Shown in pieces: positions 24,964-38,213 of a DNA stretch of 56,218 nt; position 1 is the first letter of the stretch; each line of letters opens with the position of its first letter. The position numbers and the translations under genes were made by a program. Origin of the DNA: a virus (Duplodnaviria > Caudoviricetes); IMG/VR virus record IMGVR_UViG_3300021961_000121, positions 1-56,218 of that record. The stretch is one strand, 5' to 3'. The notes beneath the pieces were generated by a model. It worked only from the letters and a program-made list of their open reading frames with translations. It did no database searches and had not been told where the DNA came from.

Positions 24964-26640
24964 TTACCTTTCCAAGTTTTTCATAAATGAAACAATAATA
25001 TACCTCGTACCCTTTGTTACTGCCCTAGCTCCGTGTTTGTGAGTGATGTTGCCAGGGTGAATGGTAGCATAACCAATTGGATTCTTTATCAATTTCTTTT
25101 GTCTTCTAAACCAAGTACCACCACCTTCATATTCATCGAGGTCTGAAAGTTGAATCAGACAAGTGATGTCCGATGAGTCGTGATGGATTGATAGGTGACC
25201 TTGAGCAGATGGGACATATTTTGCAAGGAAGTTTTCACTCTGCATATCATCCCAACCTCGACCTTCCAACGCCCACATATAAATCGAGAATGGCATTACA
25301 AACAATCGAAGGATTTCCATATAGGTATCGTGTAATCCAATCACATCCAACACCATATCGGTAGTTGGGTAATTGTCGTGTCTATCAGTAGTCCAACACC
25401 TACAATGTTCAGCCTCCTCCCTAATCATCTTACAAAACTCTTCCGTAAAAAGAGGGAATGAAAAACAATTATCAAATGGTTCATCCGTAATCAATTCCCA
25501 TTCTTTGGTTCGTGCTGAATATGTGATAAATCGTTCAATCCAAGCTTGAGGGTCTTCAAAATAAGTGTATAATTCAGGATGAAGTTTTCCACCAGTTTCA
25601 AGTAGGTTTACCCAATCTTCAATACGAATTGGCCAAGTTTGATTTTTTGCATATTCATATGAGGTATTCTGATTTACTACTTGTAGGGTTTTGTTATTAT
25701 AAAGATATTTGAATTTTTCTAAAATTCTATTTTTTAAAAGTTCAGTATCGGATATTGTCGATACAATAGCCGCATTACCTAACAATAAATTCATCAAGTT
25801 TCCAGTATCAGTAGAAACAATCTTAACACCACCATACATCATTTCAAGAGCAGTGATACAATAAGTTTCAATGTATTGTGATGGGTAAATCCAATACTCT
25901 GAAGATTTAATTTGGGTGTAGAGTTCAGTTGGAGATAAGTTATCTAAAAAATGAACCCCATCATATAACCCCTTATAATCCTCATACCAATCTAAAGCGT
26001 ATGGCGGAGTAGCGACCCACAAACTTGCGTTTGGAATCATTTCCAAGATTTGAGGCCAGATTTCCAATAGTTCTTTTAACCCTCTATCAGGAGCAGATGT
26101 GTATATGAATTTATTTTCATAACGAGGGGTGTCTATATTTTGCCAGTCATATGGGTCTATTGCGTTTTCAATTACAACAATTTTGTTTTCAATTTCAGGA
26201 TAAGTTTTTATCAATAAAGTTTTGTGATAATTTGAAACCGCAACGACTGATGTAATTCGACTATCGGTTAGATAATCCATTCCCTTGTTTGGAAGTTCTT
26301 CACCATTGTACCACGGATAAAACTCTTCGTTGTGAATCCAAAAAAACGATTTATCGTAGGTGACATTTAACGATTCTAATAATGGAATGTAGTGAATATA
26401 AGCCGTAGCGATTACAACATCAAAATGTTGGTTTTCTTCAAGTTCGGTAATGTGTTGGTAAAGTACCCCATCGCAATTGTCAGAAATAACTTCACCACTC
26501 ACAATAACATCGTGACCTTCTGCAAACAAATAGTCAGCAAGTTTAATAACTGAATATTCAGTACCACCCGCACCCAACTCTAACCAAGTGTTTTTGTTGA
26601 ATGGTAATTTTTGATAACCTGTGTATATTAATACTCTCAT
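24964..26640 (-). CDS. Fusion of GT-B (GT4-like) glycosyltransferase and PLOD-type lysyl hydroxylase 2OG-Fe(II) domain
   Basis: N-term: GAGGTE, YTSAPDRGL, YPSQYIETYCITALE. C-term: FPLFTEEFC...PTTDM...HHDSS...YEGGG...HPGNITHKHG...GTRYIIVSF, matching the LH/PLOD catalytic-domain pattern. Confidence 0.85.
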   Translation of the reverse strand: MRVLIYTGYQKLPFNKNTWLELGAGGTEYSVIKLADYLFAEGHDVIVSGEVISDNCDGVLYQHITELEENQHFDVVIATAYIHYIPLLESLNVTYDKSFFWIHNEEFYPWYNGEELPNKGMDYLTDSRITSVVAVSNYHKTLLIKTYPEIENKIVVIENAIDPYDWQNIDTPRYENKFIYTSAPDRGLKELLEIWPQILEMIPNASLWVATPPYALDWYEDYKGLYDGVHFLDNLSPTELYTQIKSSEYWIYPSQYIETYCITALEMMYGGVKIVSTDTGNLMNLLLGNAAIVSTISDTELLKNRILEKFKYLYNNKTLQVVNQNTSYEYAKNQTWPIRIEDWVNLLETGGKLHPELYTYFEDPQAWIERFITYSARTKEWELITDEPFDNCFSFPLFTEEFCKMIREEAEHCRCWTTDRHDNYPTTDMVLDVIGLHDTYMEILRLFVMPFSIYMWALEGRGWDDMQSENFLAKYVPSAQGHLSIHHDSSDITCLIQLSDLDEYEGGGTWFRRQKKLIKNPIGYATIHPGNITHKHGARAVTKGTRYIIVSFMKNLER

Positions 26641-27932
26641 TTTGACTCCACAATGTAATTTAAAACTTGTTCTCTTTCATAGTATCTTGTTCTATCCATC
26701 CAATTTTGAAGCCGATGAGCTCTACCCTCTTCTTCGTTCCAAGACCAATCTTCTTTTCCAAGTTCAAGGATTCGTTGGTGAATAAATGGGTCATAATAGT
26801 CCTTGATTAACCTGGCTCTACGATTAATATCAGTAGAGTTATTGTCAACCGTGGAATTTCTATTATTGTATTGTACATATAACATTTTTTTTAGGTGAAT
26901 CATACGAGTTTCAAGGAATGTTTTAACAATCAACTCATAATCATCCGCTACTGAAATGTTTCTACTATGTCCTCTAATTTTATGATAAGTATCACGATGC
27001 CAAATTCTACAATGATTCGGCATTCCAATATTAAATCTAATGGATTTGGGGTTGATGTCGGGATAGTGATGAGTTAACCAAGTAACTCCGTCAAATTCTT
27101 CCCAAGTGTGACCAGCATATCCCCAATCGAAGAAGTTTTCAGGGTGACCATACCAATCATCACCAATACGACCATATTGTCGTGGTGTGCCATCTTCATA
27201 TACCTCGGTTACATCCGTATATACAAATCCAGCATCTGGATATTGTTTAGTTGCGTTTAAAACATCTTCCAAACAAGTGGATATAAGGACATCATCGTGG
27301 TCTAATTCAAATAGCCACTCCCCATTCGATAACATAGCAGCTCTATGTTTTACCTCACCAACATTACCACTTGAATTTGGGGTCATACGATGGATATTTA
27401 CTCTATAATCCGTACTTGCAATTTCCTTCAGATACTCCCAAGTACGATAATCACCCTCGGGTGAATCATCAACCACAACCCATTCCCAATTTGGGTAAGT
27501 TTGGTTCTTCAACGACTCATATGTTCTGAATATTCGTTCGTTTGTCTTATAAGTTGGTGTGAATACTGATAGAATGGGTGTTTCATCATTACCATAGACC
27601 TCTTTTTGTGATTTACAAGCCCAAAAGGTAGATTGACACACCACATCGTTAGCTAATATGTTATCAGGTATGATTTCATCGTAAGTTCGTAACTTACTAC
27701 TAACCATAATGTGATTTACCATTTCGTTGACCTCAACAAAATGGTTTCCAATGGTTATAATGATATCAGGTCGGTGAATTGCCAAATGGGACTTAAAATC
27801 CACCGAACTCTCATATGAATATAAGATTACATCTTCGTGTAAACCTTCTTCCCAGTAGATATCGGACTGAATTCTAATCTCACCGAACCTATCCCATCCA
27901 TAAATAAGAGCAGTTGGTAAACTTGTCTTCAT
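26637..27932 (-). CDS. GT2 family glycosyltransferase
   Basis: SVFTPTYK, WEWVVVDDS, LDHDD (DxD), ADDYEL; likely start MKTSLP at 27932. Confidence 0.88.
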   Translation of the reverse strand: MKTSLPTALIYGWDRFGEIRIQSDIYWEEGLHEDVILYSYESSVDFKSHLAIHRPDIIITIGNHFVEVNEMVNHIMVSSKLRTYDEIIPDNILANDVVCQSTFWACKSQKEVYGNDETPILSVFTPTYKTNERIFRTYESLKNQTYPNWEWVVVDDSPEGDYRTWEYLKEIASTDYRVNIHRMTPNSSGNVGEVKHRAAMLSNGEWLFELDHDDVLISTCLEDVLNATKQYPDAGFVYTDVTEVYEDGTPRQYGRIGDDWYGHPENFFDWGYAGHTWEEFDGVTWLTHHYPDINPKSIRFNIGMPNHCRIWHRDTYHKIRGHSRNISVADDYELIVKTFLETRMIHLKKMLYVQYNNRNSTVDNNSTDINRRARLIKDYYDPFIHQRILELGKEDWSWNEEEGRAHRLQNWMDRTRYYEREQVLNYIVESK

Positions 27933-37400: not shown

Positions 37401-38213
37401 TACTGCTCCTTGAGCACCCGTAGCACCTTGTGGACCTTTAGGACCAACAGGACCTTGTGCACCTGTAGCACCTTGAGCACCAGTCGGACCGGCAGCTCCA
37501 GCCGCACCTTGAGGGCCGGTAGCACCTTGAGGGCCGGTAGCACCTTGAGGACCGGTAGCACCTTGAGGACCTTGATAACCTTGAGCACCGGTAGGACCAG
37601 TTGGACCGGTAGCACCTTTAGCACCTTGAGGGCCGGTAGGACCATCAGCACCTTTAGCACCTTGTTGACCTTGAGCTCCTTGAGGACCTTGAGCTCCTTG
37701 AGGACCTTGTGCACCTGTAGCACCTTGAGCTCCTTGGGGACCGGTAGGACCTTGACCACCTTGAGCACCTGTAGCACCTTGTGGGCCGGTAGGACCTGTT
37801 GGACCAGTGGGACCTGTGTTGTGAAGGAGGACTCCACCAACATAATAGTTGTGGTCAGGTTCTACTTCAATGGATATAAAATATGTCGGGTCTTCTACAT
37901 ACGATACCGATAAAATTTCAATATCGTTATGAAGAGTTGTATTATTATTGTATGCGTTTATCGGAGAAACCCAATCGCCCATTAGGGAAAGGACTTTGGA
38001 ATCTACTGATAAGTTGGATGTTGTACCATCCGAAAATTTTACTTGGATGTAGTCGTTTAATTCTCTATGGAATACGCTTACTACTTTGTTTTCTCTAACG
38101 GAACGAGTTGATAAATCATAACCCTTTACGGTATCACCAACTTGGATATTAGAAATAGGTGTAAGAACTCCGTTGATTTCAAGTAAAGTGTCTTTATGTA
38201 AACCGTGTATCAT
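34425..38213 (-). CDS. Collagen-like fibre protein B: Hint domain, about 1,090 aa of periodically interrupted Gly-X-Y, short C-terminal domain
   Basis: I..IQVGDTV...[19 protein letters not shown] at aa 132; GAQ/GPQ/GAT repeats. Confidence 0.88.
34570..37390 (-). repeat. Degenerate coding tandem repeat, mostly 60 bp (20 aa)
   Basis: Successive 60-nt lines align in register from about 34570 to 36540; unit G[AS]SP[QT] plus five GXY triplets, with 17- and 23-aa variants further 5'. Confidence 0.9.

Follow-up and report, generated by a model that had tools for sequence, protein, structure and literature searches.

The 56,218-nt stretch of DNA analyzed here (the window) is a viral contig of the Caudoviricetes (IMG/VR record IMGVR_UViG_3300021961_000121) and covers approximately 29% of the estimated genome. 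It carries a block of five genes, two of which encode giant collagen-like proteins, collagen-1 and collagen-2, and three of which encode putative modifying enzymes: a small 2-oxoglutarate (2OG)/Fe(II) oxygenase, a glycosyltransferase (GT) of family 2 (GT2), and a fusion of a family 4 glycosyltransferase with a lysyl hydroxylase (GT4–LH). Since one of these enzymes is genuinely related to the lysine hydroxylase of animal collagen and is encoded beside collagen genes, the fibers of the phage probably receive both hydroxyl groups and sugars from its own enzymes. We regard it as likely that the block is an accessory fiber cassette of a distant T4-like marine myovirus, whose collagens are modified by the neighboring enzymes and processed by N-terminal Hint domains. 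The core of this reading, a phage-encoded system for collagen-lysine modification beside its own substrates, with Hint-headed collagens, is well supported by the comparative data.

All genes called in and around the cassette lie on the minus strand. In direction of transcription, the order is collagen-1, collagen-2, the 2OG oxygenase, GT2, and the GT4–LH fusion, followed by gp13-, gp15-, and sheath-like genes. A preliminary description of this DNA had claimed five open reading frames (ORFs) here, with two giant Gly-X-Y genes leading into three enzymes and these into a gp13-like gene; all five were found on the minus strand in the places given there, and the order was borne out. The cassette and its boundary gene are composed as follows.

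34425-38213, minus strand: collagen-1 gene, 1262 amino acids (Pfam Collagen, E = 2.8e-78)
28569-34409, minus strand: collagen-2 gene, 1946 amino acids (Pfam Collagen, 8.3e-147; PA14, 4.4e-11)
27934-28533, minus strand: small 2OG/Fe(II) oxygenase, 199 amino acids (2OG-FeII_Oxy_3, PF13640, 3e-15)
26637-27932 (ORF as listed 26637-27968), minus strand: GT2 glycosyltransferase of the GT-A type (PF00535, 5.6e-17, residues 134-263)
24964-26640, minus strand: GT4–LH fusion, 558 amino acids (GT4/GT1 and OGFOD2-like/2OG domains in Pfam)
23756-24919, minus strand: gp13-like neck/head-completion gene, the cassette boundary (phrog_211, 2.5e-14)

The probable true start of the GT2 gene is the ATG at 27932, one base past the oxygenase stop. 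Thus, the three enzyme genes are joined by a 1-nt gap (oxygenase/GT2) and a 4-nt ATGA overlap (GT2/fusion). Such tight packing and a recurrent motif before the first enzyme gene, described further below, may be taken as signs of an operon.

The fusion protein is divided into two parts.

25606-26640, minus strand: GT4/GT-B half, approximately residues 1-345 (PF13439, PF00534, PF13692)
24967-25587, minus strand: PLOD-type lysyl hydroxylase domain, residues 352-558 (LH3 and L230 matches)

In phmmer searches against PDB sequences, residues 352-553 matched residues 502-713 of human LH3 (6fxk) with E = 9e-31, and the LH domain matched mimivirus L230 (6ax6) with 4.9e-20; the homology extends across the entire domain. 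The Fe(II)/2OG ligands H486, D488, H536, and R546 are invariant in 12 homologs of 45-73% identity, and their counterparts in LH3 are found in its HHD and THYH...R stretches. The lysyl hydroxylase/GT fusion announced in the preliminary description is, by these matches, a protein with a genuine PLOD-type domain. The likeness to L230 that had been drawn there holds for the LH domain, which is homologous, but not for the transferase half, which is GT-B/GT4 and not of the GT-A type found in LH3 and L230. Neither the N-terminal GT-A domain nor the accessory domain of the LH3/L230 type occurs in the fusion, whose PDB matches to LH3 cover residues 352-553 only. A large protein collection holds 287 homologs of the fusion protein. 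Relatives of approximately 790-850 amino acids carry an extra GT25 domain in precomputed Pfam assignments. An 818-amino-acid relative at locus L069 (L numbers denote the loci compared in this study) combines GT4, GT25, and oxygenase domains in Pfam and matches both human LH3 (1.1e-30) and procollagen galactosyltransferase 1 (1.7e-12). GT25 (PF01755) gave no Pfam match in any of the five window proteins. A DNA-modifying role of the oxygenases was also considered and was rejected because the LH domain is specifically PLOD-like.

Both collagens contain long Gly-X-Y runs of the kind that form the collagen triple helix, and they are predicted to be trimers. Apart from their N-terminal domains, which are treated below, they are built from the following parts.

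34551-37817, minus strand: collagen-1 triple helix, interrupted periodically by G-[AS]-S-P-[QT]-G (Pfam Collagen, 2.8e-78)
34428-34550, minus strand: collagen-1 C-terminal non-collagen domain with the end ...YVSGSY, common to collagen-2 and relatives (15-row alignment)
33627-33938, minus strand: collagen-2 8-cysteine region, residues 158-261, with 8 of the protein's 10 cysteines
28722-33626, minus strand: collagen-2 body, residues 262-1896, with four rod segments and three globular inserts (Collagen, 8.3e-147)
31326-31592, minus strand: collagen-2 PA14 domain in the middle insert, residues 940-1028 (PA14, 4.4e-11)
28572-28721, minus strand: collagen-2 C-terminal conserved domain with the end ...YISGSY (15-row alignment)

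The triple-helix segments of collagen-2 comprise residues 262-393, 572-862, 1042-1479, and 1659-1896. Triplets were counted in Gly-X-Y runs of at least four. The 273 triplets of collagen-1 show Lys eight times at Y and never at X, Pro 77 times at X and never at Y, and Thr 50 times at Y. The 352 triplets of collagen-2 show Lys 44 times at Y and never at X, Pro 66 times at X and once at Y, and Thr 113 times at Y. Taken together, the rods of the window have 52 Lys at Y and none at X, as well as 143 Pro at X and one at Y. X-Lys-Gly acceptor sites for the LH domain are thus present in the co-encoded collagens. The same preference is seen in 26 distinct neighboring collagen ORFs of related loci, where Lys occupies Y in 786 and X in 11 of 5265 triplets.

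The lysine content of the collagens varies with whether the hydroxylase is present. With the gp13-like protein as the anchor, a scan of viral contigs revealed 54 new loci. Six fusion-less loci (L108, L109, L110, L112, L114, and L127) have the collagen, oxygenase, GT2, and gp13 genes on the piece, and the five of them with enough triplets show Lys at Y in 4 of 328. When 80 distinct collagen ORFs are compared, Lys is found at Y in 1677 of 9779 triplets at 43 loci with LH versus 91 of 4343 at 24 loci without it; the medians are 0.171 and 0.000, respectively (Mann-Whitney p = 2.4e-11, uncorrected for kinship). A tree was built from 38 distinct gp13-like sequences; the six rows without the fusion are dispersed in it among the fusion rows, and the best tree requires 5 changes. 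The nearest contrasts in lysine, which agree in direction, are L108 (4/97) versus L116 (123/497), L114 (0/61) versus L118 (72/362), L109 (0/52) versus L006 (112/398), and L112 (0/39) versus L017 (8/62). Correlative as it is, and drawn from contig fragments, this covariation speaks more strongly than any other observation for the collagen lysines as the substrate.

The linkage of enzymes and collagens was studied in relatives of the fusion in viral contigs. Of 86 pattern matches, 84 encode relatives, and 80 loci were kept. At 57 of these loci, the contig extends more than 500 bp beyond the upstream end of the enzyme block, and at 53 of them a collagen ORF is located directly upstream. At the remaining four, the LH part alone was matched, and the block was therefore taken to begin too late; its true start is further upstream or beyond the contig. 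At loci which hold the small oxygenase, the collagen ORF is directly upstream in 53 of 53 cases. Many of the loci are nearly identical to one another. Clustering of the LH domains gives 16 groups at 95% identity, 8 at 85%, and 2 at 70%, and each of the 8 clusters at 85% includes a collagen in at least one locus. In the second deep LH group, composed of 24 loci, no gp13-like gene is found nearby. The order at L069 is collagen, GT4-GT9 fusion, a collagen ending in Peptidase_S74, small oxygenase, and GT4-GT25-LH, followed by tail sheath, tube, and baseplate hub. Since the second group stands in a sheath context, the linkage of collagen, oxygenase, and hydroxylase survives a changed genome neighborhood. 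The co-occurrence check that had been suggested along with the preliminary description is in good agreement with it, as a collagen is found upstream at all 53 judgeable loci and in two genome contexts. As a separate observation, a heptosyltransferase-like GT4-GT9 fusion is placed between two (G-T/S-S)n collagens in this locus (L069:3004-5346, L069:5411-9328), one of which has the Peptidase_S74 end.

The two collagens begin with domains of a further kind.

37818-38213, minus strand: collagen-1 Hint domain, residues 1-132 (phmmer, 115-row alignment)
33939-34409, minus strand: collagen-2 divergent Hint-like domain, residues 1-157 (hhalign versus the Hint alignment)

The preliminary description spoke of two Hint-collagens, and Hint homology was indeed recovered for both, by phmmer for collagen-1 and by profile-profile comparison for collagen-2. 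The Pfam match of the collagen-1 N-terminus to PT-HINT (E = 0.0046, 17.7 bits) stays under the cut-off of 27.7. With residues 1-133 as the query, phmmer retrieved 173 proteins at E <= 0.001, down to 3.8e-23, from 1.84 billion representatives, and all ten distant matches that were scanned are PT-HINT or Intein_splicing proteins above the cut-offs. At the Cys1 position, which is Cys in 76 of 115 rows, collagen-1 has Gly4, and its block-B TxxH reads SVDS, the His found there in 102 of 115 rows being replaced by Ser. It keeps the block-F His121 (104/115 rows), His131 (111), and Asn132 (110), followed by Thr133. Close relatives of collagen-1 reveal the same pattern of lost and kept residues, and the terminal His-Asn is retained in all four relatives that reach the position.

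The N-terminus of collagen-2 matches the Hint alignment over 125 columns with an hhalign probability of 96.7% (E = 4.1e-10), obtained in a single comparison with a 7-sequence profile. V155, H156, and N157 are invariant in seven sequences of 33-57% identity in which little else is invariant, and this Val-His-Asn falls on the Hint terminus. Other searches with this N-terminus were negative: Pfam gave no match, the profile gave nothing meaningful against PDB sequences, BLASTP found no similarity between the N-termini of the two collagens, and a word-index search with residues 1-262 yielded 1117 candidates, none of which scored. The AlphaFold2 model of this N-terminus was poor (predicted local distance difference test, pLDDT, 53.4).

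In inteins, Asn cyclization can cleave the C-terminal junction without the N-terminal nucleophile, and Cys1 mutants still cut C-terminally. As Cys1 and the block-B His are gone from collagen-1, splicing and N-terminal cleavage are excluded there, and C-terminal cleavage alone is possible. The conservation of His-Asn in otherwise decayed domains, combined with this intein chemistry, suggests a self-removing N-terminal propeptide. On the basis of the retained residues, we slightly favor self-cleavage for collagen-1, while for collagen-2 it appears somewhat less likely than not. The Cys-rich stretch of collagen-2 is variable in sequence, yet remains Cys-rich in relatives. It may form a disulfide knot and would become the new N-terminus after cleavage.

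The small oxygenase is, according to its AlphaFold2 model (pLDDT 80.5), an enzyme of prolyl-hydroxylase-like fold. The top Foldseek matches are protein prolyl 4-hydroxylases (Pseudomonas PPHD 4iw3, PHD2, algal P4H 3gze, and chlorovirus vCPH 5c5t) and PiuC, with E-values of 7e-10 to 4e-8 and template modeling (TM) scores of 0.57-0.68. Profile matches favor the PKHD-type protein 3dkq (9.6e-13) and PiuC (3.3e-11), and those to prolyl 4-hydroxylases are weak (0.005). The protein stays below all NCBIfam cut-offs for YbiX/PRK05467. An alignment of 11 sequences shows no variation at its residues H120, D122, H176, and R186. With Pro at Y in 0 of 273 triplets of collagen-1 and 1 of 352 of collagen-2, X-Pro-Gly sites for this enzyme are almost nil. 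The animal-style Pro hydroxylation that the preliminary description had taken as its model is therefore left with almost no sites.

Wherever more than 2200 bp precede the fusion gene, which is the case at 51 loci, a homolog of the small oxygenase is present, and it is kept at all six fusion-less loci. The family is large, with at least 577 relatives among 600 pattern matches in viral contigs (L156-L235 among them). Distant relatives of 36-58% identity were assessed at 53 loci with enough upstream DNA; a collagen ORF is located directly upstream in 9 and within the locus in 33. The collagens linked to the family vary from (G-P-T)n to (G-T-S)n. Judging from the rod sequences of the window, candidate sites would be Pro at X or the Pro of the G-x-S-P-x-G breaks. 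We see an even chance that the small oxygenase acts on the collagens at all.

These breaks are a regular feature of the collagen-1 rod. The stereotyped G-[AS]-S-P-[QTK]-G break recurs there each 20-odd residues and is also found in L012:1-3426, L116:2-2590, and L125:1-2583. Pro is the third residue in 44 of 45 four-residue interruptions of collagen-1 and in 312 of 331 such breaks across 49 ORFs. Ser-Pro breaks occur in only 20 of these 49 ORFs and in none of the sheath-adjacent ORFs of the sister group (L060, L065, L069, L075, L076, and L079). The G-[AS]-S-P-[QTK]-G break is a possible hydroxylation or O-glycosylation site. As a general target of the small oxygenase it was discarded, as it fits the collagen-1 types only. 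The Thr residues at Y (50 and 113) may provide an alternative sugar acceptor; Thr-linked sugars occur on Bacillus BclA and on vent-worm cuticle collagen.

The GT2 protein begins with a region of approximately 120 amino acids that belongs to no known family. The best PDB match of GT2 is the beta-1,3-N-acetylglucosamine transferase 6h1j (1.1e-8), and the proteins closest to it among solved structures and in NCBIfam are polysaccharide synthases of the GT-A type. GT2 is variable in relatives: it is present at 43 of 51 loci and missing from 8 further loci that keep the fusion; it is dispensable in some lineages.

Pfam assigned no family to the two collagen-2 inserts without PA14 or to the C-terminal end. 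A complex prediction with three copies of the 66-residue C-terminal end scored 0.27 against a mark of 0.42, which counts neither for nor against trimerization.

From the observed homology, conserved residues, synteny, and lysine covariation, we infer each chemical step and the position of the fibers on the virion as follows. The cassette would have been inserted, along with other fiber-like genes, between PhoH and the neck gene. Both collagens would be virion fibers, consisting of an N-terminal Hint domain, Gly-X-Y rods, and a common small C-terminal domain, one of them with a sugar-binding PA14 insert. On the unfolded chains, the C-terminal domain of the fusion would hydroxylate Lys at the Y position (X-Lys-Gly), and the GT4 half, probably together with GT2, would put sugars on hydroxylysine or Thr/Ser. 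The small prolyl-hydroxylase-like oxygenase might add a further hydroxyl, e.g., to Pro at X or to the break Pro. The Hint domains would cut themselves off via Asn cyclization in the manner of propeptides. Among these steps, hydroxylation of the collagen lysines appears probable to us and glycosylation by at least one transferase somewhat more likely than not. That tailed phages run a full and self-contained collagen maturation, with Hint propeptide removal, PLOD hydroxylation, O-glycosylation by non-animal folds, and a lysine content which co-evolves with the hydroxylase, is put forward tentatively.

Alternatively, the enzymes could act on another late target, be it a virion protein, the host envelope or polysaccharide, or DNA, and merely travel with fiber genes in a hypervariable region. 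We consider this improbable, although several observations fit it and weigh against a dedication of the enzymes to collagen. Six bacterial GT4-LH homologs of 45-51% identity (L085-L090, from Granulosicoccaceae, Chromatiales, Rhodobacteraceae, and another gammaproteobacterial metagenome-assembled genome) have no collagen ORF or partner enzyme within 10 kb. Hence, outside phages the family is not bound to an adjacent collagen. They were detected by an alignment-based scan; a single-sequence scan of genome contigs with the fusion gave 25 pattern matches and no relatives. A collagen-family search exceeded its cut-off in four of five homolog-bearing bacterial genomes and also in four of 14 control genomes, and nothing was drawn from it. 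In 20 of 53 cases, distant relatives of the small oxygenase are without a collagen ORF within 6 kb, and no residue type is common to all collagens linked to this family. Thus, the company of collagen genes that the preliminary description expected of the enzymes is kept at the viral fusion loci, but not by the six bacterial homologs and these 20 oxygenases. The PHROG families matched by the fusion and the other cassette enzymes are classified with auxiliary or 'moron' genes; the kinship of GT2 to polysaccharide synthases points the same way; and the fusion of the window is without a GT25 domain. As for the lysine counts, three collagen ORFs at LH-positive loci have less than 2% Lys at Y, and two at LH-negative loci have at least 5%, one of which (L185, a 7-kb piece) supplies 61 of the 91 Lys at Y counted without LH. 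The loci are mostly contig fragments with related rows, where 'no LH' means none on the piece; well-supported branches of the gp13 tree force one change only; and the counts cover collagens of cassette-linked loci. However, the hydroxylase is specifically PLOD-like rather than a 2OG enzyme of a generic kind, a COLGALT1-like GT25 domain is added in relatives, and collagen adjacency holds across a changed genome context. In addition, collagens have next to no Lys at loci without the hydroxylase, which a different target does not predict.

Accepting that the collagens themselves are modified, the Hint domains might nevertheless be catalytically dead and retained as a structural head for virion docking or as a rod cap. 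The losses of Cys1 and the block-B His in collagen-1 speak for this, as does the further loss of the block-F His in collagen-2, where Pro follows the Asn and is no nucleophile. On the other hand, His-Asn is kept in all four collagen-1 relatives and in all seven collagen-2 sequences in spite of their 33-57% identity, and Asn cyclization does not depend on the N-terminal nucleophile; we therefore hold dead domains to be rather unlikely. The location of the fibers is a more balanced matter. The preliminary description placed them as neck whiskers or head fibers. In T4, wac stands directly before the neck genes, a position that the genes of the window share; the placement is built on nothing but this gene order, from which the site of the fibers on the virion does not follow. 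Among the best 25 of the 27 PHROG families matched by one collagen and the best 25 of the 42 matched by the other, there is no fibritin family. Tail or side fibers for host recognition have, in our judgment, an equal chance. The top PHROG matches with a function are tail-fiber families for both collagens, though it is the collagen repeats that produce these matches. The upstream gene at 39663-41114 matches tail-fiber PHROGs outside collagen repeats. A collagen of the sister group adjoins the sheath gene and ends in the Peptidase_S74 chaperone domain, as tail fibers and spikes do, and the PA14 domain points to glycan binding, while the C-terminal domain of the window collagens matches no known family. 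By analogy, the S74-ended sister collagens and the PA14 insert favor tail or side fibers at least as much as the neck.

Hydroxylation of collagen lysines with subsequent glycosylation is on record for animals and, as a viral precedent, for mimivirus. L230 and the phage fusion alike join a PLOD-type LH to a glycosyltransferase, and both viruses encode collagen-like proteins. The L230 transferase is GT-A, like that of LH3, and thus differs from the GT-B/GT4 half of the phage fusion. In further contrast to mimivirus, the phage enzyme would work in the bacterial cytoplasm, its gene forms a compact block with those of GT2, a second oxygenase, and the presumed substrates, and the collagens it would meet carry Hint domains. 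The work on mimivirus L230 and its collagen is reportedly that of Luther et al. 2011, with 6ax6 and 9nev as LH structures.

Human LH3/PLOD3 (6fxk, 8zgc, 9evj) is the best match of the phage LH domain, the match reaching before the catalytic core, with the HxD...H...R ligands conserved. Both systems have X-Lys-Gly substrate sites, and some phage relatives possess a COLGALT1-like GT25, but the phage fusion of the window lacks the GT-A and accessory domains of LH3 and has no GT25. With bacterial PT-HINT domains and inteins, the collagen-1 N-terminus shares a direct match, the block-F His, and the terminal His-Asn. It differs in its place at the extreme N-terminus, with three residues before it, in the loss of Cys1 and the block-B His, and in heading a collagen instead of a toxin. 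Prolyl 4-hydroxylases (PPHD, PHD2, algal P4H, vCPH) and the PKHD-type PiuC/YbiX are the nearest folds and sequences of the small oxygenase; unlike the former, it has neighbors with almost no X-Pro-Gly to offer, and it falls under the YbiX/PRK05467 cut-offs. Phage tail fibers with collagen repeats and bacterial collagens, e.g., BclA, have the same Gly-X-Thr and Gly-X-Gln rods; we know of no lysyl hydroxylase among them.

According to excerpts of a review, mimivirus hydroxylates and glycosylates its own collagen, and most prokaryotic collagens show no hydroxylation, glycosylation, or cleavage (PMC8968730). An excerpt of Iyer et al. predicts that bacterial dioxygenases of the beta-hydroxylase type modify collagen-like and tail-collar proteins (PMC2938197), and the excerpt at hand on pelagimyophages mentions collagen repeats in structural proteins only (PMC7029224). 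A full-text literature search found no description of a lysyl hydroxylase or of hydroxylysine chemistry in tailed phages. This agrees with the preliminary description, whose author was aware of no account of the complete arrangement in a phage. As judged from the genes, the phage system differs from maturation in animals and mimivirus by its transferase folds, the extra P4H-like oxygenase, and the built-in candidate propeptide.

The cassette combines a PLOD-type domain with giant phage collagens in a tight block, and it is widespread in marine viral contigs, as the 84 of 86 matches and the 287 homologs indicate. Its compact enzymes, GT4-LH, GT4-GT25-LH, and the P4H-like oxygenase, could serve in E. 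coli for the production of recombinant collagen that carries hydroxyl groups or sugars. A Hint domain as the removable N-terminal propeptide of collagens would, if true, be a new use of Hint. Likewise, marine phages would be a large unrecognized reservoir, and possibly the evolutionary source, of the collagen-lysine chemistry of animals and giant viruses. This raises the questions of which role glycosylated fibers play in marine adsorption or shielding and where the animal enzyme originated.

At the genome level, the closest relatives of the major head protein are found in Microcystis phage Mel-JY01 (58%), Flavobacterium phage immuto (54%), and Rhodothermus phage RM378 (39%). The gp13-like protein shows 50% identity to a Mel-JY01 protein and 38% to a 'putative head completion protein' of immuto. 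PhoH lies directly before the gp13-like gene in Mel-JY01, with one small gene between them in immuto, and both are approximately 22 kb apart in the window. By tblastn, the fusion protein matched 16 records of cultured phages, partially and with 25-29% identity; neither Mel-JY01 nor immuto is among these 16. Because PhoH and the gp13-like gene adjoin, or nearly so, in these two cultured relatives, and both relatives are absent from the fusion-matching records, the cassette is, on gene-order grounds, an accessory insertion. No near-identical DNA was found among cultured phage records.

The motif mentioned above precedes the first enzyme gene.

28549-28556, plus strand: recurrent intergenic 8-mer, TATAAATA on the plus strand and TATTTATA in gene direction, 15 nt before the oxygenase start

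TATAAATA occurs 13 times in the window versus 4.1 expected, and none of 100 shuffles reaches 13. Eleven of the 13 copies are on the plus strand (4825, 7099, 17600, 19008, 22369, 24947, 28549, 46954, 50929, 51497, and 55885). Of the 44 minus-strand ORFs listed, 9 are preceded by the motif at a distance of no more than 60 nt, including the oxygenase gene and the gp13-like gene (24947-24954); among the same 44 ORFs, the collagen genes have no copy within this distance. In a T4 late promoter, the consensus TATAAATA precedes the gene and is read on the non-template strand. A late motif of the enzyme genes had been claimed, and it is present and enriched; its orientation is not that of T4 late promoters, since TATTTATA is read in gene direction. 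A T4-type late promoter was therefore rejected, as the motif lies on the plus strand whereas the genes are on the minus strand and its orientation is the reverse complement of the T4 late element. Its recurrence makes it look like a real upstream, promoter-like signal of the phage itself.

Besides the five cassette genes, the stretch between PhoH and the gp13-like gene contains, at 38230-46918, ORFs of 1203 (with a weak cadherin match), 690, 483, 66, and 349 amino acids, mostly of no known family. The tail-fiber PHROG matches of the 483-amino-acid gene (39663-41114) lie outside any collagen repeat. Between the ORF of 66 amino acids and the 349-amino-acid gene which precedes the collagens, a strong terminator-like hairpin of 12 pairs with a T run is located at 39389-39416, readable on both strands. 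Downstream of the gp13-like gene follow a 175-amino-acid ORF, the gp15-like gene (PF16724, 1.6e-7), and the tail sheath gene (phrog_23, 5.2e-70). A scan of the window for transfer RNAs returned no genes. Within the head module, a DNA methyltransferase-like gene (50948-52306; phrog_12517, 2e-76; phrog_498, 6.6e-62) is positioned between the protease and major head genes.

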